64,000 bases of DNA from positions 1,152,001-1,216,000 of the forward strand of contig CAWBMP010000004.1 of NCBI GenBank assembly GCA_963790025.1. The letters are read 5' to 3'. Position 1 is the first letter of the stretch. Every line of letters begins with the position of its first letter. Positions 586 to 38,624 of this stretch are shown in pieces. Both the position numbers and the translations under genes were made by a program. A model generated the notes under the pieces. The model did not search any database and was not told where the DNA came from. It worked only from the letters and a program-made list of their open reading frames with translations. Source of the DNA: Nitrospirota bacterium (GTDB taxonomy: Bacteria > Nitrospirota > Thermodesulfovibrionia > Thermodesulfovibrionales > Dissulfurispiraceae).

Positions 586-2046
<1,461 letters not shown>

Positions 2047-2305
2047 TCATCCACTCCCCTAATGCAAAGTAAGAAATAAAAAGTGAGAAGTAAAAAGCAA
2101 CGAACAAGCGACCTTTTCTTTATATCATTTTACTTATCACTTTTTACTTGTCTCTGTGTCTTTGTGAGTGAGATTATACCATTTCTTTGCAGACGGGGGC
2201 AAAATGAAGAATGAGAAGACAAAAGTTAAAAGTGAGGAGCAACCGGACGACGTTTTCTTTAGTCCTTTCACCTTTAACTTTTTACTTCTCACTTTTTACT
2301 TGTCT

Positions 2306-2971: not shown

Positions 2972-2975
2972 TTAT

Positions 2976-3383
2976 TTAATACCTCCCCGAAAAAAAATCT
3001 TCAAGAATGTCCTTGTGGTCAAACGCTAAATTACCTGGAAGAGTGTCTTTATTGAATATGCATGCCTCCCCCGCATCATCTCCAGATCTTAAGGCCCCCT
3101 CGCCATCCGCTATGAATACAGTTGATATGCTATGCAGGCGGGCATCCCTGGCCGGATCAGAATAGGTGTGGAACTGCCTGACTAGCCGCACATCAAGACC
3201 CGTTTCCTCTTTCGCCTCACGCACAGCCGCAGTTTCAAGGCTTTCTCCGTAATCTACGAACCCTCCGGGAATTGCCCATCCAAGCGGAGGATTTTTCCGT
3301 TTGATCAGCACAATACCGTCCTGCCATTTTATTATTATGTCGACTGTGGGGAGAGGATTACGCGGATTACCAGGCATACGCAT
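2976..3383 (-). CDS. Nudix hydrolase
   Basis: Nudix box [23 protein letters not shown]. Confidence 0.93.
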
Positions 3384-3389
3384 TTATTT

Positions 3390-3635
3390 TCAGCTGTTGT
3401 TTTCTGCCTCCTCAATTCTCAGGTCCAGGATTTTCTCGGGGACAATAGTGGACACGGCATGCTTGTAGATAAGCTGTTCGTTCGCCTCTTTAAGCAGAAT
3501 GACAAAACTGTCGAACCCTTTGACAACTCCCTTCAGCCTCACTCCGTTTGTGAGATAAATCACCACGGGGATTTTTTCTTTCCGCAGCTGGTTCAGGAAA
3601 AGATCCTGAAGACTCTGCCCCCTGCTAATTCCCAT
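3390..3635 (-). CDS. hfq: RNA chaperone Hfq
   Basis: [33 protein letters not shown]; start re-called to ATG 3635 after an AGGAGG RBS. Confidence 0.96.
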
Positions 3636-23207: not shown

Positions 23208-24350
23208 TTATACCTTTTGCGGAAATATGATCGAAAATTTTGCTCCGCCAAGCGGAGAGGTACCGGCGAGAACCGTGCCGCCGAAGCCCGTTATGATTCC
23301 ATATGCGATTGCCAGCCCCAGCCCGGTGCCGTTTGGTTTAGTGGTAAAAAAGGGTTCGAAGATATTGTCCTTCATATCTTCATTGATACCGATGCCGTCA
23401 TCTTCCACTTCAATACATAGCTCCCTCTGGTCCTTTCTGAGTGCGACTCTCACGGTCGTCTGTGCTGCCTCGACCGCATTTTTAATAATATTATTGACAG
23501 CGATCTCCATAAAGGTCCTGTTTGCCGTGATTACAGCATCGCTCGCGTTGGTGAGAGTTATCTTTTTATCGCTCGCCTGGTGACTGACCAGCAGCTTCAG
23601 CATTGCAGAAAGATCGACATCTTCTTTCGGAGCATCAGCAGGCCTTGAGAACAGGAGGAAATCATTCACGAGGTTGATGAGACGTTTCACCTCGGTCATG
23701 AGCATATCTGTAAACTGCCTGTCGGTCCTGCCCTCATTCAGGAATTGCACAGCCGCCGATATCGAGGCAAGGGGGTTCCTTAATTCGTGTGCGAGATCTG
23801 CGCTTACCCTGTAAAGACGCTCATGCGCCTGCATTTTTATCTTTTCTTCTTCAAGACGCTTGATGTGGTGCTCCTGCTGCTCCATTCTCGTTTTCAGGTT
23901 ATCGCCCGCAAGAGCTATGAGGGAAAAAGCAAGAAGATGCAGCGAAATGTTGAGAACGCTCCCCCTTTCAAACATTATGCCGTAGCTATAGTACACCGCA
24001 CTATAAAGAATTGCAGAAATTGCCGGAAACAGAAGGATTTTCTTTGTTTTAATCAGGAATGACGAAAAAAAGATGGGGAACAAGTAAATAAGTGTCAAAA
24101 AAGAATAAATGCCAAAACTTATGTATACCATTGCAGAAATAAAGACAATATCAAGCAAAAAATCGAAATAGTTAACTTTCTTCGTGCTCACAACAAGCCG
24201 CAGGAGCACTATGGAAATATAGATGATCAGGATGTTTCTGAGGACCGGTACGGAGTAAGGCAGGCCAGCTATCTGAAATGCAATGAGCAGAGTCAGGGCA
24301 AAAATGAAACGACCAATGCGGTAATAATTGAAAAAAGACGAGGCATACAT
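23208..24350 (-). CDS. pilS: Membrane sensor histidine kinase, PilS-like (short, no PAS domain)
   Basis: About 6 TMs, AHELRNPLASI H-box, FFTTKPNGTGLGL G-box; upstream of pilR. Confidence 0.8.
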   Translation of the reverse strand: MYASSFFNYYRIGRFIFALTLLIAFQIAGLPYSVPVLRNILIIYISIVLLRLVVSTKKVNYFDFLLDIVFISAMVYISFGIYSFLTLIYLFPIFFSSFLIKTKKILLFPAISAILYSAVYYSYGIMFERGSVLNISLHLLAFSLIALAGDNLKTRMEQQEHHIKRLEEEKIKMQAHERLYRVSADLAHELRNPLASISAAVQFLNEGRTDRQFTDMLMTEVKRLINLVNDFLLFSRPADAPKEDVDLSAMLKLLVSHQASDKKITLTNASDAVITANRTFMEIAVNNIIKNAVEAAQTTVRVALRKDQRELCIEVEDDGIGINEDMKDNIFEPFFTTKPNGTGLGLAIAYGIITGFGGTVLAGTSPLGGAKFSIIFPQKV

Positions 24351-24447
24351 AAGCGTTATGGCGTACCGAGTTCAGCGTTTAGCGTTAACGGCAACAACAA
24401 ACCCTCAACAAACTGACAAAACATAATTGTGTGTAGTTTATAAATAA

Positions 24448-24484
24448 TGACATTTTTTGTCAATAAGGGTGACTTTTTTTGTCA
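24448..24484. promoter_or_regulatory. Tandem TGAC-N7-GTCA palindromes, putative PilR upstream activator sites
   Basis: TGACATTTTTTGTCA (24448-24462) and TGACTTTTTTTGTCA (24470-24484), 22 bp apart, ~75-110 bp upstream of the sigma54 promoter. Confidence 0.7.
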
Positions 24485-24557
24485 ATATCGTCCTGGCCGC
24501 TCACTTTCTGTCTAATAAAGAATATTTTAAAACAGGCAATTGCGACGTAGCCCATGA

Positions 24558-24573
24558 TGGCACAAAAGATGCT
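24558..24573 (+). promoter_or_regulatory. Sigma54 promoter of pilA
   Basis: TGGCACAAAAGATGCT, GG-N10-GC. Confidence 0.8.
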
Positions 24574-24695
24574 TTTATTATATAATAAAGACACTTTTGA
24601 TAACGGATGAAAAGTCGGGAATAACTACCATCAGAGGGTGCTCAAGCACAAAAAGAATCCGCCATTGGCGGATGAGCGTGAGAAGGAGGTCTTAT

Positions 24696-25118
24696 ATGAT
24701 TACCGCTATTCAGAGAAGGAGAGCGAGCGACGAAGGGGGCTTTACCCTTGTCGAATTATTAATCGTTATTGCTATTATCGCTATCTTGGCAGCAATAGCA
24801 ATACCGCAGTTCGCGCAGTACCAGGAGAGGGCCATAAGGGCAAGCATGCAGTCTGATGCGAAGAACGTTGCAACGATGGAAGAAGCAAACTTCGGAGATA
24901 CTCAAAGCTATACGTCCGTGGCGGCAACAGCATCAGGTGGAGCATTTTCGGTCGGCAGCCAACCTGCAAAGGCGAGCAAAGGCAACATAGTCAGCGTCCT
25001 AGCCGTGGCACCACCTACTAATACATATGTAATAACTGTTAACAATTCAAGTGCCGGGACAGGCTCAACAAATTACACTATGGACAACAGCGGTGGCATG
25101 GCTTTTGTTGGTCCTTAA
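24696..25118 (+). CDS. pilA: Type IVa major pilin
   Basis: AAGGAGGT RBS; prepilin cleavage G/FTLVELLIVIAIIAILAAIAIPQF; 125-aa mature protein. Confidence 0.93.
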   Translation: MITAIQRRRASDEGGFTLVELLIVIAIIAILAAIAIPQFAQYQERAIRASMQSDAKNVATMEEANFGDTQSYTSVAATASGGAFSVGSQPAKASKGNIVSVLAVAPPTNTYVITVNNSSAGTGSTNYTMDNSGGMAFVGP

Positions 25119-25144
25119 ATCAGTTTCCTTTACCGATGCATCTG

Positions 25145-25170
25145 CAAAGGGCGGCATATGCCGCCCTTTG
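25145..25170 (+). terminator. Stem-loop after pilA
   Basis: Perfect palindrome CAAAGGGCGGCATATGCCGCCCTTTG. Confidence 0.75.
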
Positions 25171-25222
25171 TTATTAATATGAATTAATGGCTTTAGACAA
25201 GTATCATTATTGAAAGCGAGCC

Positions 25223-27151
25223 ATGAACCGCTACGATCTGATATTTTTATCGTCTTTTGCGATCTTCACCTTTTTTCTTACACCGAACATAAACACCGGC
25301 GACGGCGGGGAACTGGCTACGGCAGCCTGGTTCCTCGGCACGGCCCACCCGTCGGGCTATCCCTTATATTTGATGATAGGCAAAACTTTTACTTTTTTCC
25401 CCTTGGGAAATATCGCTTTCAGGACCGCCATAATCTCCGCGTTGTTCAGTTCGCTATCTTTAACACTCATATACTGGCTCATGCTGCGTTTGACATCCAA
25501 CAGCGCAGCCTCATTGTTTGCAGTAACTGTGCTTCTCGTTTCTTATTCTTACTTTTCCCAGTCGGTCGTCGCCAAGTTCTATATGTTGAATCTATTTCTG
25601 ATACTGCTGTTATTTACACTGTGGGCAACTCGTGTCAACAGCGCTGAGCACGAAGCCGTCGACAAACAAAACGGGCCATGTGACACACAGCTTTTATATT
25701 TTACAATGTTCATTGCCGGGCTGATCACTGCCAACCACCATACAGGCATAATTATTCTGTGCCCCGTGGCGGTTGCCTGTTTTTTAACAAAAAACTATCG
25801 TCTCAAATTTAGTACAATATTTACCGGAATTGCGCTTTTTATGTCCGGATTTTTTACAAATAGCTATCTGATTATCCGGGGGAGCGCCGATCATTTTTTC
25901 AATGCTCAAAATATCGATGACTTCATTGACTTCTATAAGGTCGTTACACGGCAGGTTTACGGCGACAGCAGTACAATAGCTTCGACAAACCTTTTAGTTC
26001 ATGGATTCACTTCATATTGGTACGCTCTCAAAAATTTCCTTTCGATACTGACATCCAATTTCAGTTACTTTTCTTACGCACTTTTTCTTGTCGGTTTCAT
26101 CTATTTGATAAGAAAAAACCCGAAATTATTTATCTTCATTTTTATCAGCTTAACAATGTACGGGCCGGCACTTGCGAAATTGACGCTGGTTTCAAAAAAG
26201 CAATATGAAATAGATTATTACATTACTGCCAACCAATATTTTATCCCGGCCATCTCCTTCTTTATAATCGTGCTCGCAATCGGGTTCCACCACTGCGAAG
26301 AGATTCTGAAAGATAGAGGGCTAAAGCTTCTATCGAAGCTGCTCCCCGTCACCTTGGCCCTTTTCCCTCTGGTTTTTTTAGTTTCGCGGGCAACGGACAG
26401 TGACTACAGGACCGATTTTGTTCCATATCAGCTTGCCAAAGATACTTACTCCGTATTACCTCCCGATAGTGTCATTATGACATTTGGAGATAATGCCTCA
26501 TACCAGGGATGGTACCTGAAACTCGTCGGCAGATACCGCGAAGATATATGCCAGATCGCGTCAGGCAATCAAAAGACAATAGATTGGATGTTCCAGGGAT
26601 GCGACAAAAAAATTTATGGCACCGTCTTCCCAATGTTTTATTCGAGAAAATTTAATGAATTGGTGCCTATGATACTCAAATACAGGTATTATGGTACCGA
26701 TCCTATAAAGGATAAAGGGGCATACAAGCAATACCTATGCAGCGACGCTGTTTCTATCGATTATTTATACCTCCCCCGGGAGGTGTTCACAAGCAATAGA
26801 ACTGAACTAAGCAAGGATGCCGGTTCTTTTCTGAGCCGAAAACAGCTTGCGGCTGACAAGGTGATTAATCCTTCTGTTTGCCTCACCCACTTTACCGACG
26901 ACCTCTTTTCGAGGCAGCTTTGCTCCAGTTATGTCATCCACCTGACCAATATTGCCAGGCTTTATTCCGAGGCATCCTATCATAGGACAGGAGAGAAAGT
27001 TAAGGTGCAGGCGAGAGATATGCGGAGCGGATACACCCAGCCGCTCTATACTGTCGATGTCACGGAAAAAAACAGACCCTATCTGGAACTTTCAACCCAT
27101 ATATTGAGGTTTAACAAATGGCCGATATTATACATGCGCAAAAAAGAATAA
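25223..27151 (+). CDS. DUF2723 / TMEM260-like multi-pass GT-C glycosyltransferase
   Basis: GDGGEL...LGTAHPSGYPLY, YFSQSVVAKFY, NHHT, later FGDN...WY...YRED motifs; many TMs. Confidence 0.82.
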   Translation: MNRYDLIFLSSFAIFTFFLTPNINTGDGGELATAAWFLGTAHPSGYPLYLMIGKTFTFFPLGNIAFRTAIISALFSSLSLTLIYWLMLRLTSNSAASLFAVTVLLVSYSYFSQSVVAKFYMLNLFLILLLFTLWATRVNSAEHEAVDKQNGPCDTQLLYFTMFIAGLITANHHTGIIILCPVAVACFLTKNYRLKFSTIFTGIALFMSGFFTNSYLIIRGSADHFFNAQNIDDFIDFYKVVTRQVYGDSSTIASTNLLVHGFTSYWYALKNFLSILTSNFSYFSYALFLVGFIYLIRKNPKLFIFIFISLTMYGPALAKLTLVSKKQYEIDYYITANQYFIPAISFFIIVLAIGFHHCEEILKDRGLKLLSKLLPVTLALFPLVFLVSRATDSDYRTDFVPYQLAKDTYSVLPPDSVIMTFGDNASYQGWYLKLVGRYREDICQIASGNQKTIDWMFQGCDKKIYGTVFPMFYSRKFNELVPMILKYRYYGTDPIKDKGAYKQYLCSDAVSIDYLYLPREVFTSNRTELSKDAGSFLSRKQLAADKVINPSVCLTHFTDDLFSRQLCSSYVIHLTNIARLYSEASYHRTGEKVKVQARDMRSGYTQPLYTVDVTEKNRPYLELSTHILRFNKWPILYMRKKE

Positions 27152-27741
27152 AACAGGCTGTAATAATAGCTGTTTGTATGATTTGCATTGTGCTTCTGCG
27201 TCTTTCTTTGGACCAGTGGCAGGGCTATTCCAAAGGGGCGGAAGAACTGAAAAAGGGCAATTACAATAATGCTATTATGTATTTCGATCGCGTTCTTAAT
27301 GCACATATCCCATTCAGCCCTCTTGAGAATAAGGCTGAAAAAAACTTGCTCGCACTTGGTTCAAAGTTCGAAAATGAGAAGGAATATGAACTTGCCCTAT
27401 TATGCTACGAGACCATACGGACATCCCGGTATCTGACACGGCATTTTTTCATTCCCGGTGCTTCACGCATTCCGTACTTGAGCAGTAGGATTGCAGCCAT
27501 CAAGGCCCGGGATTTGGTCAGGGACGGCCTCGTCAGAGATTATAAAGAAGGGTATAATCAGCAGCTCGGAATAATGAGTAGAGATTTCTCACCTTCGGTA
27601 TTCTGGTCACTCATTGCCGTAGCATCCTTCTGGGCTTATATTGGATTTATTGTTCTGTGGATATTAGAAAGAAAACGGGTTTATGTATACATTTTCTGTC
27701 TCGCTTTCATTGTTTGGATGACCGGCCTGTATTTTGCATAG
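27118..27741 (+). CDS. Hypothetical membrane protein with a TPR-like soluble domain
   Basis: N-terminal TM, helical TPR-like segment (KGNYNNAIMYFDRVL), two C-terminal TMs. Confidence 0.6.
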   Translation: MADIIHAQKRIKQAVIIAVCMICIVLLRLSLDQWQGYSKGAEELKKGNYNNAIMYFDRVLNAHIPFSPLENKAEKNLLALGSKFENEKEYELALLCYETIRTSRYLTRHFFIPGASRIPYLSSRIAAIKARDLVRDGLVRDYKEGYNQQLGIMSRDFSPSVFWSLIAVASFWAYIGFIVLWILERKRVYVYIFCLAFIVWMTGLYFA

Positions 27742-27771
27742 TTTTTTATCGCATACTATAGAAACAGGAAT

Positions 27772-28896
27772 ATGCACGTAAAGGGAGTTTTAATACTAAA
27801 CAGGAGATGTATAAGGCATCCGGAAAAAGGCGGGTCGGAAGCCTATACACTCGATTTTGCAAAGATACTAATAGAACAAGGGCATAACGTTGAGTGGTTT
27901 TCTTCCAGGGCAAACGGCCTGAAAGACAGGGAAGAAATAGAAGGCATAAGATTTGTCAGAAAAGGCAATGAACTGACAACCCATTTTCACGGTCTTCTTT
28001 ACGCACTTAAAAGAAAAGAATGGCTCATAGTAGACGTATTCAACGGCATCGGTTTTTTCACTTTTTTCATGAAGAACTCCATAATCCTGATCTTCCAGAC
28101 TTACAATGAATTCTGGACTACTGAATTGGGCACTATTGGCTATCCTTTTAAATTAATTGAAAAAATATTATTGCGCTTATATAGAAACAAGCCGGCAATT
28201 ACGATTTCAGATTCAACATCTCAGGATTTAAGAGAGATTGGATTCACTGATGTCAAAATAATACATCCTTGTATTACCATTAATCCATTGGACCATGTCC
28301 CTGAAAAAGAGAGCACATTAAAGCTGGTTTATCTGGGGAGACTAAAAAAGACCAAAAATCCGGAAGATGCGATAAGAGCATTTCTTCTTGTAAGGGAAAA
28401 AATTAAAGATGCAAAACTTTGCATTGTAGGAGACGGACCACTGTCCGTTTCACTCAAAGAAAAATATAAAAATGAAAAAGGAGTATTTTTTTTAGGATAC
28501 TTAAATAACGAAAAAAAATACGAGTATCTGAAAAAGGCACATTTCTTGCTTATTCCTAGTATACGAGAAGGCTGGGGGATGGTAGTAATCGAGGCAAATG
28601 CAATGGGAACACCCGCAATAGGATATAAGGTAAAGGGGTTGCAGGATAGCATTAAAGACGGAGATACAGGAATTCTTGTGTCAGGATGTGAGGCCATGGC
28701 TTTAAAGGTTTTGGAGCATTGGACGGACAGACAAAAGTATTACAAACTATGCAAACAAGCCCTTGAATGGGCAAGAGAATTCTCCCAGAAAAAAACAAGG
28801 CAGGATTTTATGACATATCTGGATGAGGAAAGGCCGCATAACGCAGTCAAAACCGTTATAGAAGACTCTCGACAGGAGTCAAAACGTCTGCCATGA
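27772..28896 (+). CDS. GT4-family glycosyltransferase
   Basis: HPEKGGSE, YLGRL, PSIREGWGMVVIEANAMG (EX7E). Confidence 0.92.
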   Translation: MHVKGVLILNRRCIRHPEKGGSEAYTLDFAKILIEQGHNVEWFSSRANGLKDREEIEGIRFVRKGNELTTHFHGLLYALKRKEWLIVDVFNGIGFFTFFMKNSIILIFQTYNEFWTTELGTIGYPFKLIEKILLRLYRNKPAITISDSTSQDLREIGFTDVKIIHPCITINPLDHVPEKESTLKLVYLGRLKKTKNPEDAIRAFLLVREKIKDAKLCIVGDGPLSVSLKEKYKNEKGVFFLGYLNNEKKYEYLKKAHFLLIPSIREGWGMVVIEANAMGTPAIGYKVKGLQDSIKDGDTGILVSGCEAMALKVLEHWTDRQKYYKLCKQALEWAREFSQKKTRQDFMTYLDEERPHNAVKTVIEDSRQESKRLP

Positions 28897-28897
28897 T

Positions 28898-29632
28898 ATG
28901 AAAACTCTGGTAGTAATTCCAACATACAATGAAGAGAACAATATAGGTAAAGTACTGGACGCCACTCTGCAATTCCTCGGCGGTGACATCCTTGTGGTAG
29001 ATGACAATTCAACGGACGCAACAAAGAATATAGCCGGGAATTTTCTTAATGCCGGAAGGGTCCACATGTTGGAGAGACCCTCAAAACTCGGCCTTGGCAC
29101 CGCTTATATCAATGGTTTTCAGTGGGGACTCGAAAGAGGTTATGAATTATTTTTTGAGATGGACGCAGACAACTCCCACAATCCCGCTGCTCTCCCATGG
29201 TTTGTCGAAAAGATAAGAGAGGGATATGACATAGTAGTGGGCTCAAGGTATTTAAACAATACTATCAGTGTCGTGGGCTGGGATTTCAAAAGGCTGCTGC
29301 TTTCAAAGTTCGGCAACTGGTATGCTTCGACTCTGCTGGGGTTGAAGCAATTCACCGATTTGACAAGCGGGTACAGGTGCTATACGAGTAAAGCTTTGAA
29401 GGCAATAGGGCTTGAAAAAATAAAATCTAACGGCTACGCCTTCCAGATCGAGATGGTCTACAGGGGGAATGTAAAAGGACTAAAGATTGCTGAGATGCCT
29501 ATAATATTTTATGAGCGGGGCGGAGGGGGATCGAAAATGAGCAGGAACATCGTAAGGGAGGCGGTATTTTTACCTTTGAAATTACATTTTGAAGCAATCA
29601 GCAATATATTAAAAAGGAATAATGACAGATAA
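28898..29632 (+). CDS. Polyprenol monophosphomannose synthase-like GT2 (Ppm1/DPM1)
   Basis: VIPTYNEEN, VVDDNS.D.T, KLGLGTAYINGF, EMDAD.SH, DLTSGYR, SNGYAFQIEM, ER..G.SKM. Confidence 0.88.
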   Translation: MKTLVVIPTYNEENNIGKVLDATLQFLGGDILVVDDNSTDATKNIAGNFLNAGRVHMLERPSKLGLGTAYINGFQWGLERGYELFFEMDADNSHNPAALPWFVEKIREGYDIVVGSRYLNNTISVVGWDFKRLLLSKFGNWYASTLLGLKQFTDLTSGYRCYTSKALKAIGLEKIKSNGYAFQIEMVYRGNVKGLKIAEMPIIFYERGGGGSKMSRNIVREAVFLPLKLHFEAISNILKRNNDR

Positions 29633-31196
29633 TATTAATGCATCCTTAGAAACGGCAGCTAAAGGGACTGCGATTCTTATTTTCGGTACGGTAGCAAGTA
29701 ATATACTCTGGTTCGCCATAAAGCTTATAATAATCAAGACTTCAACTGCAGAGCAATTAGGTACCTATTCACTGGCAGTGGCTATTATCAGCGTAATCAC
29801 GCTGGTAGCGAGTCTTGGCGTCCATGAAGGGGCAACCAAATACGTATCCTCTCTGCTGGGAAAAGGAAAGAAAACTGAAGCTTCTGCAGCAGGCAAATTC
29901 TCACTAAAGACCGGGATGCTGTCAGGTACTGCAGCATGTACAGCTTTATTCTTGTTTTCCGGTACACTCTCGCGTCATCTTTTTTATAAACCCGAGCTTG
30001 AAAATCCGCTAAGAATCTTATCTATTAGTATTCCCTTCACCGTTCTTTCATGGATTTGTGTCTGGATTTTGCGGGGACATGGCGTGATGCGTGCCAAAGT
30101 TTATTATCTTGACATCGGCATTCCTCTTTTTTTTCTCATATTTTTAGCGCTTTCTTTTACACTATCGTTTTCGTTCAACAATATTCTGTATGCTTTTTCC
30201 CTTTCATCAATTGCCGTTTTTGCATCTGCAGGCATATATGGATATAAAAAAATAAAATTAAACGTCTTATCAATAAAAGGTGCGGTTCGATACGACGGAT
30301 TTGTAAATTTTTCCCTGGCCGCACTTTTTTTGGGTTTAATGCTTGTCCTCTTTGGATGGACCGATACGCTCGTTCTGGGACGGTATACGTCGCTGAAGGC
30401 AGTGGGAATATATAATATCGGCGTACTGCTTGCAAACCTTCTCTTGTTCCCATTCATTGCTGTCGGATTCGTTTTTATGCCTATGGCAGGAGAAATGTTC
30501 GCGCAGGGACGGCTCCCGGAACTGGGCAGAACATTTCAAATCCTGACCAAATGGATTTTTTCTGCCACATTGCCGATTTTTTTTGTTCTTTTCTTTTTTC
30601 CTGAAATGGTGATTGCTTTTTTGTTCGGGGTCCGATTCCTGGGAGCGGTCCTGCCTCTCCGTATTTTATCAGCAGGTTTCTTATTTCAAACTGCATTAGG
30701 GCCCGGTATTTCTATGCTTATGGCTATGGGGCATTCCCGTCATATCAGGAATATTTCCATTATGGGTACCTTTCTGAATATCTCCCTAAATTATCTGATG
30801 GTCAAGCGTCTGGGCCTGGGGTTGGCGGGCGCCGCAACAGCAACGATGCTCTCCTACTCTTCAATCAGCATTATGAATTGCCTCGTGCTTTACAGGATAA
30901 GCGGGTTCCATTCAGTTACAACCAGATACATCAGACCAATTGTCTGGTCAGCGGTTATAGGATCTGCAATATATGCTGTTGCCAAGATACTGCCGCTCAA
31001 TTTCTGGATGCTTCCTTTTTATTTGTTTTTTTTTATAGGCGGATATTTTGTCATGCTGCTTCTGAGCGGAGGGTTCGATGCGGAAGATATTATTTTACTG
31101 TGCCGGCTCTCAGAAAAGGTTGGCATAAAGTCGGACCGGATATGGAAGATCGCTTGTCAGTTCAATAAACATTTGGTGCCTGAACGCGATGAGTAA
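29622..31196 (+). CDS. Wzx-like oligosaccharide flippase (MOP superfamily)
   Basis: About 14 hydrophobic segments, LGTYSLA, TDTLVLG...VGIYN. Confidence 0.85.
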   Translation: MTDNINASLETAAKGTAILIFGTVASNILWFAIKLIIIKTSTAEQLGTYSLAVAIISVITLVASLGVHEGATKYVSSLLGKGKKTEASAAGKFSLKTGMLSGTAACTALFLFSGTLSRHLFYKPELENPLRILSISIPFTVLSWICVWILRGHGVMRAKVYYLDIGIPLFFLIFLALSFTLSFSFNNILYAFSLSSIAVFASAGIYGYKKIKLNVLSIKGAVRYDGFVNFSLAALFLGLMLVLFGWTDTLVLGRYTSLKAVGIYNIGVLLANLLLFPFIAVGFVFMPMAGEMFAQGRLPELGRTFQILTKWIFSATLPIFFVLFFFPEMVIAFLFGVRFLGAVLPLRILSAGFLFQTALGPGISMLMAMGHSRHIRNISIMGTFLNISLNYLMVKRLGLGLAGAATATMLSYSSISIMNCLVLYRISGFHSVTTRYIRPIVWSAVIGSAIYAVAKILPLNFWMLPFYLFFFIGGYFVMLLLSGGFDAEDIILLCRLSEKVGIKSDRIWKIACQFNKHLVPERDE

Positions 31197-31257
31197 TGCA
31201 GGGGACTGTATAGTAATAGCTGTGGAAAACTGAAATTAAGTCAATGAGGTACAAGGA

Positions 31258-32244
31258 ATGAAGCAGTGTCCCGGATGCAGACATGAAGTAACAACAAATT
31301 TTATAAGGACATTCAGGAGTGCTGTGGCCGGCAGAGACTTTCGACTTTACCACTGCGTCCGCTGCGACCTGATGTTTTGGGAACCCCGCATAATCGAGCC
31401 GGAATTTTACACAGGCAATAAACTGGGATATGCGGAGTTTCATTGTAATTTGCGGAAGTCCCTGCCCTTTTATTCAAAGCCTTTTTTTGGTTTACCCTCA
31501 TATAAAAAAGGCAGTCTCCTTGATGTTGGTGGCGGCGACGGGTTGTTCGCTGAAAAAGCTCAGGAAGCAGGTTTCGATGTGACAATGATAGATTTCGACG
31601 AAAAAAGTGTTCAGTCTGCAAGAAAGCGAGGCGTGCATAAAGCTTTCTCTTATTCTTTGGAAGATTTTATCCTGGCTTGCAAAGGGCAAAACCTTCAGTT
31701 CGATGTAATATCCTTTTTTGAAGTCCTGGAACATCAGGAGAACCTGGAACTTTTTATCAATAACATCAAAACGTTGCTGAAGCCTGACGGCTGGATAGTG
31801 GGAAGCACACCCAACAGGGACCGAATGTGCGCAAACCTCACAAGAAAACTTGACGGCCAGGATACTCCGCCGCATCATTTTTTCTGGTGGAGTAAAAAAA
31901 GTGTGGATAATTTTTTCGCGTCGCATGGTTTTGTTGTGGAGATACTCCCTACCAAGATAGACCTTGACGCCACTACAGCTAACGTGCTGGATTATATCTC
32001 GGGGGAAATTGTCAAAAAAATGAAAGATCGTATTTTCGGATCTAATATTGAAGGTTCCTGTGACAAAATCGGAACAACAAAACTGTCCCTTCTCTCTGCC
32101 ATGAAATACTTGCGCCGTTTCTTTCTATTGCCGCCAGGTTTGTTATTGAAACTGGCTTACGCTAGAAGCGGAGGATTCTCATTTTATTTTCACGGCCGTC
32201 TTCACGATGCAAATAACTCCGGGGGAAATAAAAACCAATACTGA
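31258..32244 (+). CDS. Class I SAM-dependent methyltransferase with N-terminal Zn-finger
   Basis: CPGC...CVRC, LLDVGGGDG, FEVLEH, LLKPDG, PPHH. Confidence 0.85.
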   Translation: MKQCPGCRHEVTTNFIRTFRSAVAGRDFRLYHCVRCDLMFWEPRIIEPEFYTGNKLGYAEFHCNLRKSLPFYSKPFFGLPSYKKGSLLDVGGGDGLFAEKAQEAGFDVTMIDFDEKSVQSARKRGVHKAFSYSLEDFILACKGQNLQFDVISFFEVLEHQENLELFINNIKTLLKPDGWIVGSTPNRDRMCANLTRKLDGQDTPPHHFFWWSKKSVDNFFASHGFVVEILPTKIDLDATTANVLDYISGEIVKKMKDRIFGSNIEGSCDKIGTTKLSLLSAMKYLRRFFLLPPGLLLKLAYARSGGFSFYFHGRLHDANNSGGNKNQY

Positions 32245-32246
32245 TT

Positions 32247-33077
32247 ATGGAAGAAATGCTGAATTCGAATCGGGCCATCAAATATCCCAAACGTGACCGT
32301 TTTGCTATTGAGGAGACACTTTTATTTATGTTGCGACTTGCATCATCAAATCATCACCCATTGCACAAGGGCGCAAGAATTTTGGATTTCGGCTGTGGTA
32401 TAGGCGATAGCGTTAATTATTTAGTAGAAAAGGAATATGATGCATATGGTATCGATATAGGAGAATTTTGGGATTCTGATTTTGATACGTATTGGGAAGT
32501 GAGAGAGAAACCCGATCCCGCTCTCTGTAAGAGACTATACAAGGTCGATATTAATAGCTATCGTATTCCTTTCCCCGATGAAACCTTTGATTTTGTATTC
32601 AGCGATACTGTTTTTGAGCATGTTTTCGACTTTCAAACATCATTAAGAGAGATAAATCGCGTCCTAAAAAAAGGAGCTTTTTCTATACATATGTTTCCCG
32701 GTACATTTACTCTTAAGGAAGGGCATACTTTTGTTCCCATTGTCCCTCTTTGCAGGAAGAAATGGTGGTTAACAATTTGGGCCCTCATGGGACGAAGGGC
32801 TCCCTGGCAAAAAGGCCTCGACTGGAGAAAAGTGGTTGATCTTAACATCGAGGTCATGAAAAGTACAAACTATCTGTCGAGACGAGAAATAGTAAAAATA
32901 GCAGATCGGGAAGGCATCAAAATTCGCTTTATTGGAGGTCCTATGCCCCTTAATCATCTAAGTGAGCGCTCCAGAAAGATTTATCATATATTAAATAAAT
33001 TTGGTCTTGGAGATTTTGCCACTCGCTTAGTTAGGCCATTCATTTCAGGAAGGCTTATGGCTTTCGAAAAAAGTTGA
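32247..33077 (+). CDS. Class I SAM-dependent methyltransferase
   Basis: ILDFGCGIG, PFPDETFDFV, VFEHV, RVLKKG. Confidence 0.87.
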   Translation: MEEMLNSNRAIKYPKRDRFAIEETLLFMLRLASSNHHPLHKGARILDFGCGIGDSVNYLVEKEYDAYGIDIGEFWDSDFDTYWEVREKPDPALCKRLYKVDINSYRIPFPDETFDFVFSDTVFEHVFDFQTSLREINRVLKKGAFSIHMFPGTFTLKEGHTFVPIVPLCRKKWWLTIWALMGRRAPWQKGLDWRKVVDLNIEVMKSTNYLSRREIVKIADREGIKIRFIGGPMPLNHLSERSRKIYHILNKFGLGDFATRLVRPFISGRLMAFEKS

Positions 33078-33078
33078 T

Positions 33079-33462
33079 ACTAAGCGAATCTTACGAGCAT
33101 ATCTTAAGAATGGAGGAGAAATCGCTGTGTGGGTTTATGCCGCATATTATGAGGGAGTGCAGAGGATAAGCTCACTTCTCAGAAAAATCACAACTAAAAT
33201 GCCCGAAAGGCTGGTGTACTCGTTGTCCTCTGTTGTTATACCTCTATATCATATATGGCCACTACTCACGATAATGTTTCCTCTATTACGGTTCAGCACG
33301 CATAAGAAGCCAAAATGGAGGTGGCTTGATACCTTTGATCGGTATACGCCTCATTATGCATGGAAGCACACATACCCTGAAGTATTTAACTGGTTTAAAA
33401 AAGCGGGTCTTAATAATATAACCCTTCTGGAAAGCCCCGTATCGATGAGGGGAAGAAAGTAG
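33079..33462 (+). pseudogene. C-terminal fragment of a class I methyltransferase
   Basis: In-frame (D)TKRILRAYLKNGGEIAVWVY...LDTFDRYTP.Y...HT.PEV..WF..AG; the N-terminal SAM-binding motif is missing. Confidence 0.7.
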
Positions 33463-33463
33463 T

Positions 33464-35311
33464 ATGTGCGGAATTTTCGGAATTTATAGACCTGGCAGCC
33501 CGATCGGTGAGGCTTTGTTAGGTAGGGCGATTGCTTCGACTTCATACAGAGGACCTGACGCTCAGGGAATGTACATCAATGAAAGAAAAACCGTCGGGCT
33601 TGCACACAAAAGACTATCTATAATTGATCTTTCTGATGCGGGAAGGCAACCGATGAGCGACAGCGAAGGAAGACTCTGGATTACTTTTAATGGTGAAATC
33701 TATAATTTCATGGAATTGAGAGAGGGGTTGATCTCTTACGGACACCGTTTTTCCTCGTTGTGCGATACCGAAGTCCTCCTTTATGCATATAAGCAGTGGG
33801 GAATCGATTGCCTCAGGCATTTAAACGGCATGTTTGCGTTCGGCATCTATGATTCTGCCGGGCAAAAAATTTTCCTGGCCCGCGACCGGCTGGGGAAGAA
33901 GCCGCTCTTTTATTCCACTTACTCTGGCGGGATCATTTTTTCATCCGAGCTGAAGGAGATACTTGCAACCGGCTCTGTGCCTGTCGATGTCGACAACGAA
34001 GCGGTGAACTACTATTTCTCTCTAGGATATATCCCGGGTGAGAAATGCATTGTACAGCATGTGAAAAAGCTCCCTCCCGGCCACTTTCTCGAGTATGATT
34101 GTTCGAAAGGTACAGCACAGTTAGGGCAATACTGGGACGTGCCTGAGTTTGAAGCGACAAAAAAAGAAGAGGAAATGCTCGAAGAAATTGAGGCCCTTCT
34201 TTCAGACTCTGTAAAAAAACGTCTCATCAGTGATGTCCCCCTCGGCGCATTTCTGAGCGGTGGAATTGATTCGAGCCTTCTGGTCGCCCTGATGAGAAAG
34301 GCACATAATGGCGAGATCAAAACGTTCAGTGTCGGGTTCGAAGGAAGCCGCTGCAGTGAAGTTGGACACGCCCGGCTTGTGGCCCGGCATTTCGGGACCT
34401 CGCATCGGGAAATTACCGTCGTCCCAAACTTCCGCGACGATCTTGAGCTTATATCTGGTCTAATGGATGAGCCCATATTCGACAGCTCTCTTCTGCCCAC
34501 CTATCTTCTTTCAAAACATACAAAGCAACATGTAACAGTTGCTCTTTCTGGTGATGGAGGAGATGAAGTATTCGGCGGCTACATTCATTATGCGTCAGCA
34601 CTGGTTGCACAAAATATTGCCAAATTTGCCATATCCCCTTTCCGTAAAACGGCAAAACTTGTTGCATCATATATGCCTGATGGAATGTTCGGCAGGAACA
34701 CCCTGTATGGAATATACGCGGGTGACAAGGCATGTTTTTCCTACCCTACCCAAATATTTAAAGAAGACGAGAGAGGGCAACTCCTTCATAGGGATTTTGC
34801 CGGAATAGTTGATATGAAGGCGCCGCGAATATACCGGGAGGCCCTAATGGATAAAAACTACGATTTCGTCAGTCAGATGTGTTATGCGGACATTAAAACA
34901 TTACTGCCCGACGACATTCTTGTCAAGGTAGACAGGGCCAGTATGTTTAATAGCCTTGAAGTAAGATGCCCTCTTCTGGATTATCGCATCGCTGAATATG
35001 CCTTCAGGCATATTCCGGGCAATTTTAAAGTTAGGGGCGGCATTAAAAAATACCTCCTCAAGAAGCTTGCCCAAAAACTCCTTCCCCTGGAGCTTGAGCT
35101 TGAAAGAAAACAGGGCTTCGATATTCCAGGAGACCTCCTTCTAAAGACGCACCTTACCGAAAGGCTTATGAGCTTCCCTCGAAATGACTTCATTTCACAA
35201 TCTTTCCTGTCAAAACTGATTAATGCTCAAAAAAACCGAAAAGGATCTTCGTGGCATAAGCTGTTCGCCATTTATTTTTTTATAAGGTGGTTAGAGGTGT
35301 GGAAAAAATAA
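33464..35311 (+). CDS. asnB: Asparagine synthase (glutamine-hydrolysing) family amidotransferase, glycan-cluster type
   Basis: MCGI N-terminal nucleophile, RLSIIDL, NGEIYN, LSGGIDSS, SGDGGDE, KVDRASM. Confidence 0.92.
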   Translation: MCGIFGIYRPGSPIGEALLGRAIASTSYRGPDAQGMYINERKTVGLAHKRLSIIDLSDAGRQPMSDSEGRLWITFNGEIYNFMELREGLISYGHRFSSLCDTEVLLYAYKQWGIDCLRHLNGMFAFGIYDSAGQKIFLARDRLGKKPLFYSTYSGGIIFSSELKEILATGSVPVDVDNEAVNYYFSLGYIPGEKCIVQHVKKLPPGHFLEYDCSKGTAQLGQYWDVPEFEATKKEEEMLEEIEALLSDSVKKRLISDVPLGAFLSGGIDSSLLVALMRKAHNGEIKTFSVGFEGSRCSEVGHARLVARHFGTSHREITVVPNFRDDLELISGLMDEPIFDSSLLPTYLLSKHTKQHVTVALSGDGGDEVFGGYIHYASALVAQNIAKFAISPFRKTAKLVASYMPDGMFGRNTLYGIYAGDKACFSYPTQIFKEDERGQLLHRDFAGIVDMKAPRIYREALMDKNYDFVSQMCYADIKTLLPDDILVKVDRASMFNSLEVRCPLLDYRIAEYAFRHIPGNFKVRGGIKKYLLKKLAQKLLPLELELERKQGFDIPGDLLLKTHLTERLMSFPRNDFISQSFLSKLINAQKNRKGSSWHKLFAIYFFIRWLEVWKK

Positions 35312-36414
35312 GGATTCTTGCTGTAATAGACCATCTGGGCAAAGGGGGGGCTGAAAGACAGTTTCTAAATCTTATTAATAACCTGGACATAGGGAGATTT
35401 GAACCACACATCTTTATCGCAGAAAGGGCCGGGGAGCGGTTTTCTGAATTATGTCCGCATATACAGACTCACGGCCTTTTGCGTTCACATAAACGCAAGA
35501 CTTTTAATGCCATAAAACTGCTCAGGGAAACTATAATTGATATCAAGCCATCTATTATTCAAACCTGGCTTGACTATTCAACATTTGTTACAGCAATAGC
35601 TCTAAAGACTATTTCTGTAAAGACAATATTTGTTGCATCCCACCGCACGAGCATAGAGGAGTTATATAATACTGAAGTGAAGTTCGGCAGAATAAAAAAG
35701 ACCCTGCTTATTCGGGCATACAGACAAGCGCAAAGAGTAACGACAAATTCAAAAATTCTAGTAGAACAGCTAAATCATTACGGCATTACAAAAAACAAAC
35801 TGATTTATAATGGCATAGATTTAAAGAATTACAAAAACCTGCCGTCCCGCGACGAACTGCGCAAGAAGTTAGGTCTGCCGACTGATACTTTTTATATTTC
35901 TTTTGTTGGGGCACTGGTTGAAAGAAAAGGCATACGATATTTTATAAAGGCGATAAAAAACACAAACAAAAATAATATGAAAGCACTTATAATCGGTGAT
36001 GGCGAGTTGCGGGACACAGTCAATACCATCACGAAGGAAGATTCCAGGTTTGTCTTACTGGGATTTCAGCCGAATGCAATCGAGTATATCAAAGCGTCGG
36101 ACCTTTTGGTCCTTCCCTCGCTCTATGAGGGATTGCCCAACGTAGTTATTGAAGCCATGGCGGTCGGCACGCCTGTAATCGCTACAAATGTTTATGGGAT
36201 GCCCGAACTCATCGAAGATGGCATAAACGGAACATTAGTGTCTGTTAAAGATAGCAAAAGTATCACATCCGCCATTGAATTTATCGAGGGGAATCCTGCT
36301 GTAGCGGCAAGATTTGTCGAGTCATCAGGGAGGAAAGCCGAGTTTTTCAATGTTGACCGGATGGTGAAAGAATATGAAACGCTATATTCAGAACTGTACG
36401 AAGATAATTTATAA
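35287..36414 (+). CDS. GT4-family glycosyltransferase
   Basis: GGAERQ, IYNGID, PSLYEGLPNVVIEAMAVG. Confidence 0.92.
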   Translation: MVRGVEKIRILAVIDHLGKGGAERQFLNLINNLDIGRFEPHIFIAERAGERFSELCPHIQTHGLLRSHKRKTFNAIKLLRETIIDIKPSIIQTWLDYSTFVTAIALKTISVKTIFVASHRTSIEELYNTEVKFGRIKKTLLIRAYRQAQRVTTNSKILVEQLNHYGITKNKLIYNGIDLKNYKNLPSRDELRKKLGLPTDTFYISFVGALVERKGIRYFIKAIKNTNKNNMKALIIGDGELRDTVNTITKEDSRFVLLGFQPNAIEYIKASDLLVLPSLYEGLPNVVIEAMAVGTPVIATNVYGMPELIEDGINGTLVSVKDSKSITSAIEFIEGNPAVAARFVESSGRKAEFFNVDRMVKEYETLYSELYEDNL

Positions 36415-36485
36415 TTGAAAATCCTTCATTTCAAGTTCTTGAGCAATTTGTTTAAGCAGGTAATCTGCAGATTAAGGAGGCGACA

Positions 36486-37508
36486 TTGGGAAAGAGGGCT
36501 TTAATTACAGGCATCACCGGTCAGGACGGCGCATATCTTTCAAAGCTGTTACTGGACAAGGGCTATGAAGTATACGGCGCATTCAGGCGTACGTCCGATC
36601 TGCATCTGAACCGTATAAAGTTTCTCGGCGTCGAAAACGACATACAATTTGTTCCGCTCGAACTACTTGAGTTTACCAATATCTACAGGACACTCGAAAC
36701 CATCAGGCCCGATGAAGTTTATAATCTTGGTGCGCAGAGTTTTGTGGGACTTTCCTTTGAACAGCCTGTTTTTACAGCCGATGTCACAGGTCTTGGCGTG
36801 CTCAGGATGCTGGAGGCCGTACGCGCCGTCAATCCGCAAATACGGTTTTATCAGGCATCCAGCAGCGAAATGTTCGGCAAATCAAGAGAGTTTCCCCAGA
36901 ATGAACAAACCCCCTTTCACCCCCGGAGCCCTTATGCGGTATCGAAATTGTTCGGGCACTGGATAGCTGTAAATTACTGTGAATCTTATGGAATGTTCGT
37001 CTGTTCCGGCATTCTTTTTAACCATGAATCTCCTCTCCGGGGACTTGAGTTTGTCACGAGAAAAATAACTCATGCTGTAGCAAGGATAAAACTGGGACTT
37101 CAGGAAAAGCTTTCTCTCGGCAATCTTGATTCTAGGCGTGACTGGGGATATGCGCCTGAATACGTTGAAGCAATGTGGCTAATGCTTCAGCAACCCGGAC
37201 CGGACAATTATGTCATTGCAACAGGTGAAACGCACAGCGTGCGGGAGTTTGCGGAGACGGCTTTCATGGAGACCGGGACCGAAATAGAGTGGACCGGAAA
37301 CGGGATTGCAGAAAAGGGTATGGATAAGGCTACGGGAAAGCCTCTTGTTGAAATAGACCCGCAATTCTTCAGACCCGCGGAAGTGGATGTCCTGACAGGA
37401 GATTTTTCCACGGCAAAGGTAAAACTAGGATGGGAGCCGAGGACCACATTTAATAAACTCGTCAGGATCATGGTGCAGCATGACATGAGTATCGCAGAAA
37501 TAGGATAA
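36486..37508 (+). CDS. gmd: GDP-mannose 4,6-dehydratase
   Basis: ALITGITGQDGAYL, YQASSSE, PRSPYAVSK, LFNHESP; TTG start after AAGGAGG. Confidence 0.96.
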   Translation: MGKRALITGITGQDGAYLSKLLLDKGYEVYGAFRRTSDLHLNRIKFLGVENDIQFVPLELLEFTNIYRTLETIRPDEVYNLGAQSFVGLSFEQPVFTADVTGLGVLRMLEAVRAVNPQIRFYQASSSEMFGKSREFPQNEQTPFHPRSPYAVSKLFGHWIAVNYCESYGMFVCSGILFNHESPLRGLEFVTRKITHAVARIKLGLQEKLSLGNLDSRRDWGYAPEYVEAMWLMLQQPGPDNYVIATGETHSVREFAETAFMETGTEIEWTGNGIAEKGMDKATGKPLVEIDPQFFRPAEVDVLTGDFSTAKVKLGWEPRTTFNKLVRIMVQHDMSIAEIG

Positions 37509-37526
37509 ATAACGCACATTTTTTTT

Positions 37527-38624
37527 ATGAAAATACTCCATCTCATCTACGATCATATGCGCAATCCCTGGGTCGGCGGCGGGGGCGCGGTAAGGGTTTA
37601 CAAGATATGCAAAAGGCTTGCCAGGCAGGGTCATGAAGTTACCATTTTCAGCGGAAACTATCCGGGAGCCGAGAACTATACTGAAGACGGGCTCCGGTTC
37701 TTTTTTGCAGGTAACAGCAAGAACTATGTCTTAAGCACCTTTTCATATGCATGGGAAGCCGCCTCACTGGTAAGAAAACAGGGACGCGATTACGACATTA
37801 TTGTTGAGGACTTTGCCCCGTGGAATCCCGTTTTCTCAACTTTCATGACAAAAAAGCCGGTTGTGCTTCATATCAATCATCGTGAAGGCATCAATATTCT
37901 CGGAAGGTGGTGGATCGCGGGATTGCCGTTTTTTTTGATCGAAAAATTCTATCCGTTGTTTTTCCGTCATGTAACAGCCCTTTCGGAGGAGACGAGAAAA
38001 AAAATCGGTATCGCCGGTGCAATGATAGTCCCGGCAGGCATCGACGGAGACTTTTTCAAAGACAACGACATGGTGAACAGCCCTGACAGGGAGTCACAGA
38101 CCTCCTTTCTCCTTTACTTAGGCAGGCTCCATATCAGGAACAAGGGGCTTGATACGCTCCTATGTGCCATGAAAGGTCTCGACTCTGAACTGCTTGTATC
38201 CGGCAGGGGCAAGGATGAGGATAGCCTGAAGCGAATGGCAAAAAAGCTTGGTCTTCAGAATGTCGGTTTTACCGGTTTTGTCGGAGAAGGAGAAAAAATA
38301 CATCTGTTGCGAAAAGCGCTGGCACTGGTTTTGCCATCCCGATTCGAGGGTTGGGGCCTGGTGGTCCTTGAGGCCGCTGCATGCGGCAAGCCTGTTATAG
38401 TAAGCGATATACCGGAGTTGCGGTATGCCGTGGATGCGGGGTACGGGATATCTTTCAAGACAGGCGACCCTGAAGATCTTGCCCGGAAGATAAGATTTCT
38501 TATAGACCACGAATCACTGAGAAGTGAGATGGGACGGAAGGCCCGCGAATATGCCAGGAACTACACATGGGACAAGATAGCTCTCGATGTTGAACAGTAT
38601 CTGTTAAAATTCACGACGCCTTAG
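37527..38624 (+). CDS. GT4-family glycosyltransferase
   Basis: NPWVGGGGA, YLGRL, PSRFEGWGLVVLEAAACG. Confidence 0.92.
   Translation: MKILHLIYDHMRNPWVGGGGAVRVYKICKRLARQGHEVTIFSGNYPGAENYTEDGLRFFFAGNSKNYVLSTFSYAWEAASLVRKQGRDYDIIVEDFAPWNPVFSTFMTKKPVVLHINHREGINILGRWWIAGLPFFLIEKFYPLFFRHVTALSEETRKKIGIAGAMIVPAGIDGDFFKDNDMVNSPDRESQTSFLLYLGRLHIRNKGLDTLLCAMKGLDSELLVSGRGKDEDSLKRMAKKLGLQNVGFTGFVGEGEKIHLLRKALALVLPSRFEGWGLVVLEAAACGKPVIVSDIPELRYAVDAGYGISFKTGDPEDLARKIRFLIDHESLRSEMGRKAREYARNYTWDKIALDVEQYLLKFTTP

Follow-up and report, generated by a model that had tools for sequence, protein, structure and literature searches.

A pilin gene followed at once by a glycosyltransferase gene raises the question of whether the pilin itself receives the sugar. 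The question is posed here by a locus of a Nitrospirota bacterium (family Dissulfurispiraceae; assembly GCA_963790025.1, contig CAWBMP010000004.1, positions 1,152,001 to 1,216,000 of the forward strand), and these 64,000 nucleotides are referred to as the window. Its pilin gene, pilA, is the first in a compact run of genes, all on the + strand, that occupies 24696-38624, and the gene directly behind it encodes a GT-C enzyme of the family to which human TMEM260 belongs (DUF2723; CAZy GT117). As judged from homology, gene order, and conservation, the cluster is probably a polyprenyl-phosphate-sugar-dependent pilin O-glycosylation system. Open reading frame (ORF) calling together with Pfam and NCBIfam scans of the window bore out all gene placements of an earlier, sequence-only reading of the interval. 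The genes on which the argument turns are as follows (aa, amino acids; nt, nucleotides).

24696-25118 (+): pilA, 140 aa; PF07963, E 4e-8
25223-27151 (+): GT117/TMEM260-family GT-C enzyme (DUF2723), 642 aa; PF11028, 82.6 bits against a cut-off of 24.2
27118-27741 (+): 207-aa membrane protein, called the partner; no Pfam family; 34-nt overlap with the GT117 gene
28898-29632 (+): DPM1/Ppm1/AglJ-like GT2, 244 aa; PF00535, E 5e-23

Below, genomes carry G numbers and loci carry L numbers.

A TMEM260 homologue behind pilA

The gene at 25223-27151 is the sole PF11028 gene in the genome, and the match spans residues 27-192 of its product. The family comprises 10,062 clusters at E up to 0.001, and relatives are named 'glycosyltransferase family 117 protein' by NCBI. 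When a profile of 32 family members was compared with the PDB, a single match was obtained, human TMEM260 (9rql_A, E 2.7e-53), in which GT117 positions 6-433 align with TMEM260 residues 31-464, i.e., with the entire GT-C membrane core. The description of this protein as TMEM260-like, which had been put forward before any hidden Markov model comparison, is thereby confirmed over the whole core.

In TMEM260, residues D52, H67, R264, Y267, and R355 bind the dolichyl phosphate mannose (Dol-P-Man) donor, and D441 is the catalytic base (preprint 10.64898/2026.03.17.711096). Five of these six functional residues are kept in the window enzyme according to the profile alignment, where D27, H42, R243, Y246, and D423 take the places of D52, H67, R264, Y267, and D441; the first of them is the aspartate of the GDGGE motif that had been marked out earlier for mutation. 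Among 28 orthologues of the same clade, none departs from D27, H42, R243, Y246, or Q338, and 27 retain D423.

The similarity to TMEM260 ends at residue 433. The last 200 residues of the GT117 protein have no sequence match to TMEM260 and no Pfam TPR, and this C-terminal part is the most diverged at long range; a Pfam TPR was also absent in all 10 more distant GT117 proteins scanned, 7 of which are pilin-adjacent. Within the genus, no genes of the locus change faster than GT117 (46-75% identity) and pilA (54-79%); GT2 (69-82%) and pilS, pilR, and pilC (72-84%) are better conserved. Two irregular copies of the gene were seen. That of Thermodesulfovibrio sp. N1 (L075:5935-7831) is split in two overlapping ORFs, by a frameshift or an assembly error, and that of G025 (C47, L008) holds one in-frame TAG.

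Conservation of the pilin linkage

A GT117 homologue was found in 16 of 61 relatives. In 17 of the 18 loci from these genomes, GT117 is immediately preceded, on its own strand, by a prepilin ORF, and the contig of the 18th begins inside the gene. A second scan, of one genome per species and overlapping the first sample in some genomes, yielded 43 loci that span Nitrospirota, Aquificota (Aquificaceae and Hydrogenothermaceae), Desulfobacterales and Desulfurellales bins, Methylomirabilis, Patescibacteria, and unclassified bins. Of these, 37 are informative (at least 400 bp upstream), and a pilin ORF is immediately upstream in 32. A GT2 orthologue (55-82% identity by tblastn) accompanies 27 of the 43. 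The linkage of pilA, the DUF2723 gene, and the DPM1-like GT2, whose failure would have told against the original proposal, therefore holds across phyla. As a control, PF11028 was sought in 151 sampled genomes of the phylum and found in 32; a pilin was upstream in 11 of 28 informative loci, and in none of the 12 PF11028 loci of families f17 and f22. Other GT117 clades of the phylum are not pilin-linked and have several copies per genome.

In a maximum-likelihood tree (56 rows, first 460 residues, LG+G4; contig-cut loci, the frameshifted L075, and several near-duplicates were left out), the window GT117 falls within a 28-row clade of mixed phyla (SH-aLRT 99), all rows of which are pilin-adjacent. 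The same is true of every row in a second clade of 8 (support 99), and in a 12-row clade 11 rows are without a pilin. On this tree, whose rows are related rather than independent, the pilin label requires 2 changes; shuffled labels require 16.0, and none of 500 shuffles went as low. Pilin adjacency is a property of clades and not a matter of chance. Where a genome has two or three GT117 copies, as in G048 and G052, each copy lies behind its own pilin.

The genes that follow the pair vary in number. The type GT4a-GT2-methyltransferase-GT4c-MOP flippase (or a 390-400-aa protein in the last place) occurs in Aquificota and Desulfobacterota bins and in genome G004 of the window's genus; the order GT9-GT2 after the partner occurs in 8 loci, and GT2 alone after the partner in L070 and L050; a further type, with no GT2 in the stretch covered, comprises 6 loci. 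In L070, the minimal cassette, pilin-GT117-partner-GT2 stands between an AMP-ligase gene and an opposite-strand secretin gene, and in L069 mur genes and a MutS-like gene flank a cassette of seven genes.

A putative polyprenyl-phosphate hexose synthase

The GT2 has no transmembrane (TM) segment. Its residues 1-220 align with 5mlz, the Dol-P-Man synthase of Pyrococcus furiosus (E 3e-25); the alignment covers the entire catalytic domain and includes the MDAD (DxD) motif. The NCBIfam families that it matches best, with AglJ first, followed by PpgS, a haloarchaeal Dol-P-hexose transferase, PgfS, and ArnC, all consist of polyprenyl-phosphate glycosyltransferases. The protein is thus predicted to be a polyprenyl-phosphate hexose synthase. 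An orthologue (at least 52% identity) is present in 16/16 GT117-positive relatives vs. 3/45 GT117-negative ones. The two genes co-occur even when unlinked, as the GT2 gene lies far from GT117 or on another contig in four positive genomes (G057, G038, G040, and G052).

The partner protein

The gene that overlaps the end of the GT117 gene encodes a protein with TM1, a domain of six helices, TM2, and TM3, and no strands, according to a structure model (pLDDT 90.3, pTM 0.75); the positive-inside rule would place the helical domain in the periplasm. Homologues were detected by tblastn directly downstream of GT117 in 35 of the 43 loci. Three of the remaining eight stop at a contig end, and the other five are Patescibacteria and f17-type loci. 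The partner may be a subunit of the transferase that recruits the acceptor or stabilizes the enzyme.

The partner had been described as a TPR-like membrane protein. It is indeed a helical membrane protein, but the TPR likeness is not significant (TPR_1 20.6 bits vs. 27.8). Across the family, TPR_1 appears below threshold in 10 of 33 members (Pfam), and hhalign of the partner against two fused GT117-TPR proteins gave probabilities below 1%. Foldseek with the partner model returned no match at E up to 0.001, and in VIA-align the partner reached Z scores of at most 10.7, against helical repeats both designed and natural, which is below the meaningful level for such repeats. A role for the partner as the missing TPR domain in trans was considered on this weak evidence and is kept as a conjecture only. 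In G009, a genome of the same genus, GT4a is replaced by a GT9 gene, which is separated from the partner gene by inserted DUF6364 and PIN-domain genes, likely a toxin-antitoxin pair (L041:8596-9271).

The remaining glycan genes

The rest of the cluster consists of the following genes.

27772-28896 (+): GT4 glycosyltransferase GT4a, a cytoplasmic GT-B enzyme (Pfam)
29622-31196 (+): MOP flippase (Pfam/NCBIfam)
31258-32244 (+): methyltransferase MT1 (Pfam/NCBIfam)
32247-33077 (+): methyltransferase MT2 (Pfam/NCBIfam)
33127-33462 (+): orf111, a small ORF with no Pfam or NCBIfam match
33464-35311 (+): AsnB-type amidotransferase (Pfam/NCBIfam)
35287-36414 (+): GT4 glycosyltransferase GT4b (Pfam/NCBIfam)
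36486-37508 (+): gmd; TIGR01472, 470 bits against a cut-off of 415
37527-38624 (+): GT4 glycosyltransferase GT4c (Pfam), with which the extended cassette closes as a conserved feature; the best solved relatives are PimA and PimB

The gene content of the stretch from the flippase to gmd (29622-37508) differs even among genomes of the same genus. In tblastn searches of the 43 loci, the GT4a slot holds a GT4a orthologue in 17 (50-71% identity) and a GT9 enzyme in 8, and GT4c is found in 11 (45-71%). Below the NCBIfam cut-offs, Agl16 is the best match of GT4c and is also among the matches of GT4a. No Wzy_C/WaaL/PglL-type gene was detected within the cluster by the Pfam scan, as had been observed by eye, and five Wzy_C genes lie elsewhere in the genome. 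In the flippase slot of L052 (11955-13166), L054, L056, and L071, the MOP (Polysacc_synt) protein of other cassettes is replaced by a 387-403-aa protein of similar size, probably a divergent flippase, that matches no Pfam family in L052, the only copy scanned.

An STT3/AglB-type enzyme in sister genera

The GT117-negative relatives that retain the GT2 orthologue are G012, G026, and G050. In the first two of these, and in a further genome, G018, an STT3-type gene lies immediately behind pilin genes. The three genomes represent three sister genera of the same family, and the genes are located as follows.

L117:9859-11868 (-): STT3-type gene of G012
L121:9187-11166 (+): STT3-type gene of G026
L124, about 1501-3432 (-): STT3-type gene of G018

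In G012, a pilin gene and a pilin-like gene are followed by the STT3-type gene, by orthologues of the window's glycan cassette, and by a gene for a MOP protein. The STT3/PglB/AglB-family protein has 669 aa (PF02516, E 6e-11; PF21436, E 2e-9), and the orthologues include GT4a (47% identity), GT2 (66%), MT1 (54%), orf111 (64%), AsnB (64%), GT4b (59%), and GT4c (47%), so that all genes of the window's variable part recur except gmd and MT2. The conservation of orf111, at full length and between MT1 and AsnB, shows that it is a real gene within the glycan pathway. In G026, pilC, pilR, pilS, and two pilin genes precede an orthologous STT3-like gene with the motif WWDWG, and the third orthologue, in G018, is also behind two pilins.

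PF11028 is absent in G012, G026, and G018, and an STT3 orthologue was found in 0/16 GT117-positive genomes. The two transferases belong to different families: when the GT117 profile was aligned by hhalign with the STT3-like protein of the sister genera, and with a TPR protein from there, no homology emerged. Neither ORF lists nor tblastn located the partner beside the two STT3-type loci whose flanks were examined. The pilins that adjoin the STT3-type genes carry N-x-S/T sites (a presence that was not counted against expectation). At these loci, bacterial pili may be N-glycosylated, and the transferase module may have been swapped. Since closely similar cassettes go with one or the other of two unrelated GT-C protein glycosyltransferases, and always behind pilins, the cluster as a whole is taken to serve protein glycosylation rather than lipopolysaccharide (LPS). 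The exchange of GT117 and STT3 before such similar glycan cassettes suggests that islands for pilin glycosylation are built from modules.

G026 also encodes proteins of 570-660 aa (L118:10974-12959, -; L121:11914-13632, +) with 460 unassigned N-terminal residues and C-terminal TPR repeats, one adjoining the GT2 orthologue and one following the STT3-like gene. Both are possible additional GT-C-like enzymes that carry TPR domains.

The pilin and its flanking elements

PilA has a leader, the prepilin motif G|FTLVELL, and a hydrophobic alpha-1 helix. The mature protein of 125 aa contains 24 Ser/Thr and no Cys; the earlier count of 20 Ser/Thr in the last 73 residues was exact. It is likely the major type IVa pilin because of its pilS/pilR/pilC context; the C-terminal disulphide-bonded loop of type IVa major pilins is missing, as the protein has no Cys. 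The genome has 11 prepilin motifs in all. In 17 aligned GT117-adjacent pilins, the position of Ser71 (mature Ser56), in the motif D-x-Q-S-Y at the start of the head domain, is Ser/Thr in all 17, and that of Ser94 is Ser/Thr in 15. These two residues are candidate acceptor sites only.

Upstream of pilA, by about 125 nt from the start, a sigma-54-like -24/-12 element (TGGCAC-N5-ATGC, one mismatch) is found at 24558-24572 (+). Window-wide, the pattern is not above chance (45 found vs. 54 expected), and its position alone is suggestive. Directly past the pilA stop, folding detects a strong hairpin (25144-25171, +) with a 12-bp GC-rich stem and a weak U-rich tract after it (z-score -3.5 for 25105-25230), likely an attenuator or terminator; a simple terminator scan of the + strand listed none after pilA.

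Proposed function and alternatives

In the proposed mechanism, the soluble DPM1-like GT2, acting on the cytoplasmic side of the membrane, would take a hexose from a nucleotide sugar and attach it to polyprenyl phosphate. The lipid-linked sugar would then be flipped, perhaps after being extended by GT4/GT9 enzymes and methylated, and GT117, together with its 3-TM partner, would transfer it to Ser/Thr of PilA in the periplasm before the pilin enters the fibre. The sequence-only reading had likewise joined the pilin, the TMEM260-type enzyme, and the DPM1-like GT2 into one system, and this core is supported. Its choice of mannose is a guess. Single-sugar transfer is not the sole reading because the GT4/GT9, methyltransferase, and MOP flippase genes are conserved and because a close cassette serves an STT3-type oligosaccharyltransferase. 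Accordingly, there is some chance, though we hold it with reserve, that GT117 and its partner form an O-oligosaccharyltransferase, which would move a short methylated glycan en bloc from polyprenyl monophosphate to Ser/Thr of the pilin and whose glycan pathway would be interchangeable with that of an STT3/AglB-type N-oligosaccharyltransferase. The DPM1/AglJ-like GT2 would start this glycan, GT4/GT9 enzymes would extend it, the MOP protein would flip it, and GT117 would transfer it. If so, pilin glycosylation islands exchange the transferase module and retain the glycan module.

Several observations weigh against a pilin O-glycosylation system as described. TMEM260 works on extended, unfolded segments (10.64898/2026.03.17.711096), which bears on access to a folded pilin head. 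As to mannose, the TMEM260 residue that contacts this sugar, R355, whose alanine mutant retains about 20% activity (10.64898/2026.03.17.711096), is replaced by Gln338 here and by Gln in 28/28 orthologues. The GT2 is far below all NCBIfam equivalog cut-offs (AglJ 75.3 bits vs. 325, PpgS 60.1 vs. 370), and the earlier suggestion that it makes a lipid-phosphate mannose is supported as to the DPM1-like type of synthase but not as to the sugar. Genome G050 retains the GT2 with neither GT117 nor the STT3-type enzyme, and 8 of the 35 partner-bearing loci have no GT2 in the stretch covered (L051, L057, L061, L062, L065, L066, L075, and L080), at least two of which reach a contig end soon past the partner gene. 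Five informative loci (L058, L073, L074, L077, and L078) have no upstream pilin. As relatives, the genomes are not independent cases, and metagenome bins make up most of them. The absence of a significant TPR likeness in the partner and the envelope genes downstream of the cluster, which by position would allow a role in envelope glycans, are to be counted here as well.

The pilin might be one of many substrates of a general periplasmic protein O-glycosyltransferase, as with PglL of Neisseria or actinobacterial Pmt, and the gene order would then reflect co-regulation. Other GT117 clades of the phylum are multi-copy and without pilin linkage, the extended cassette resembles general glycosylation islands, and the genome has a single GT117 gene, so that other O-glycoproteins would depend on it. 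This explanation is nevertheless unlikely given that the pilin is adjacent in all 28 rows of the window's clade, across phyla, that the copies in G048 and G052 each follow their own pilin, and that GT117 diverges in step with pilA. Moreover, two genomes of the same genus that gave no PilS match are also without GT117 and GT2, one of them being only 74% complete. A different target, an envelope glycolipid (LPS core, O-antigen, or lipid A) modified in the manner of ArnC/ArnT or GtrB/GtrC, would make the pilA neighbourhood incidental. A GT2 and a GT-C enzyme are the standard pair of the Arn and Gtr envelope modifications, GT9, a heptosyltransferase family, fills the GT-B slot in 8 loci, and in the window and same-genus genomes the cluster runs into bamA (start 38718), skp, lpxD, fabZ, lpxA, and lpxI (Pfam/NCBIfam). 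However, such neighbours occur only in the genus of the window and in a second genus of the family (L027; the loci are L021, L024, L027, and L045) and are a trait of those two genera rather than of the cassette, whereas the pilin context is found in 32 of 37 loci across phyla, and unrelated genes flank the cassettes of L069 and L070. The only solved homologue is, in addition, a protein O-mannosyltransferase whose catalytic base is kept, and sister genera have an STT3-family protein oligosaccharyltransferase behind pilins, in G012 with the same cassette. A glycolipid target is for these reasons quite improbable.

The slightest chance is given to GT117 and its partner being pilus-assembly accessory proteins that lack transferase activity, like the TfpY-like proteins. 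What recalls the pilin-accessory cassettes described in Pseudomonas is the position behind pilA together with a small 3-TM protein (PMC11841053). Yet the donor-binding residues are invariant in the 28-orthologue clade, the catalytic D423 is retained in 27 of 28, a lipid-sugar synthase co-occurs, and the topology of the partner (1+2 TM, helical) is unlike that given for TfpY-like proteins (PMC11841053).

Comparison with known systems

Human TMEM260 (CAZy GT117; PDB 9rql, 9rqm, and 9rqn) is a protein O-mannosyltransferase of IPT domains in the endoplasmic reticulum. It shares the GT-C core and five functional residues with the window enzyme, and a DPM1-type lipid-phosphate-sugar synthase is likewise available at the window locus. 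The window enzyme differs in being bacterial and predicted to be periplasmic, in having Gln for R355, and in its predicted acceptor, a pilin instead of an IPT domain. TMEM260 has a luminal Rossmann-like domain and a TPR domain in the same chain; the window enzyme gave no Pfam TPR match, and its locus has a separate 3-TM helical protein encoded by an overlapping gene.

A similar arrangement is that of TfpW (with TfpX) in Pseudomonas aeruginosa group IV, which accounts for pilin D-arabinofuranosylation; as in the window, a GT-C enzyme is encoded right behind pilA and is followed by a small membrane protein. TfpW uses a polyprenyl-phosphate sugar donor, and multiple Ser/Thr of the pilin are modified (bioRxiv 10.1101/2020.04.19.049825). 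A hairpin behind pilA is common to the window and the pilin-accessory cassettes described (PMC11841053). TfpW is described as carrying a C-terminal periplasmic TPR domain in cis, and the window GT117 chain is without a Pfam TPR. The D-arabinofuranose pathway enzymes DprE1 and DprE2 are not among the Pfam/NCBIfam matches of the cluster, to which the search was confined. TfpX/TfpY-like proteins are reported to have three N-terminal TM helices and then a beta-rich periplasmic domain (PMC11841053), in contrast with the strandless, six-helix domain that the model places between TM1 and TM2-TM3 of the partner.

Actinobacterial Ppm1/Pmt follows the same two-enzyme logic, with a DPM1-like synthase that makes polyprenyl-phosphate mannose and a GT-C enzyme that passes it to Ser/Thr outside the cytoplasm (PMC5882110). 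Pmt, however, belongs to GT39 and not GT117, its substrates are Sec-exported proteins generally, with no pilin linkage, and the unit includes neither a dedicated small partner nor genes for GT4/GT9 enzymes, methyltransferases, or a flippase. Archaeal N-glycosylation by the Agl pathway combines AglJ, soluble glycosyltransferases, a methyltransferase, a MOP-type flippase, and AglB, and the same classes of parts are found in the cassette. An AglB/STT3-type enzyme is also encoded behind pilins in the sister genera, in G012 before the orthologous cassette. In the window the transferase is GT117 and the linkage would be O- and not N-; the host is bacterial and the predicted target is a pilin.

PglL and TfpO (PilO), of the Wzy_C family, use undecaprenyl-diphosphate-linked glycans started by a phosphoglycosyltransferase; no phosphoglycosyltransferase is among the Pfam/NCBIfam matches of the cluster. 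They also modify pilin Ser/Thr in the periplasm, and tfpO is also behind pilA (PMC11841053), but they are an unrelated protein family with no member in the cluster. The window system is not of the PglL/TfpO type; by descent it belongs to the TMEM260 family, and its working logic is like that of Ppm1/Pmt and TfpW.

The paper that reported TMEM260 mentions 'distant homologs in bacteria' but gives them no function (PMC10214176). In the literature searched, which did not extend to subscription journals, DUF2723 is named in that paper only, no substrate is assigned to bacterial members of the family (DUF2723, GT117), no work joining TMEM260 and pilin was found, and queries on a pilin O-mannosyltransferase or polyprenol-dependent pilin glycosylation returned nothing relevant. 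With the locus and its relatives, bacterial GT117 gains a concrete candidate substrate (the pilin encoded beside it), an enzyme that would make the donor, and a partner protein of its own. If the assignment is true, GT117 would be a third enzyme family in pilin O-glycosylation, beside PglL/TfpO and TfpW, and a simple bacterial model of an enzyme whose loss causes a heart and kidney syndrome in humans (TMEM260). Cultivable carriers of the cassette include Hydrogenobacter, Thermodesulfovibrio, and Sulfurihydrogenibium.

Neighbouring genes

Upstream of the cluster lie further pilus genes, two of them divergent from pilA.

20415-21629 (+): pilC; Pfam T2SSF
21722-23080 (-): pilR; Pfam Sigma54_activat, Response_reg, and HTH_8; divergent from pilA
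23208-24350 (-): pilS; Pfam HisKA, HATPase_c, and 6TM_PilS (27.0 bits, cut-off 27); divergent from pilA

The G+C content across the pilA-glycan cluster (24001-36000 of the window) is 0.41-0.43 vs. 0.45-0.51 in most flanking stretches, a lowering that resembles a frequent pattern of variable surface-glycan islands. Farther upstream, at 10260-12941 (-), the window encodes a protein of 893 aa in which CoA-binding, succinyl-CoA-ligase-like, ATP-grasp, and GNAT domains are fused (protein lysine acetyltransferase type) and whose gene adjoins a second GNAT gene and a Cu/Zn superoxide dismutase gene.

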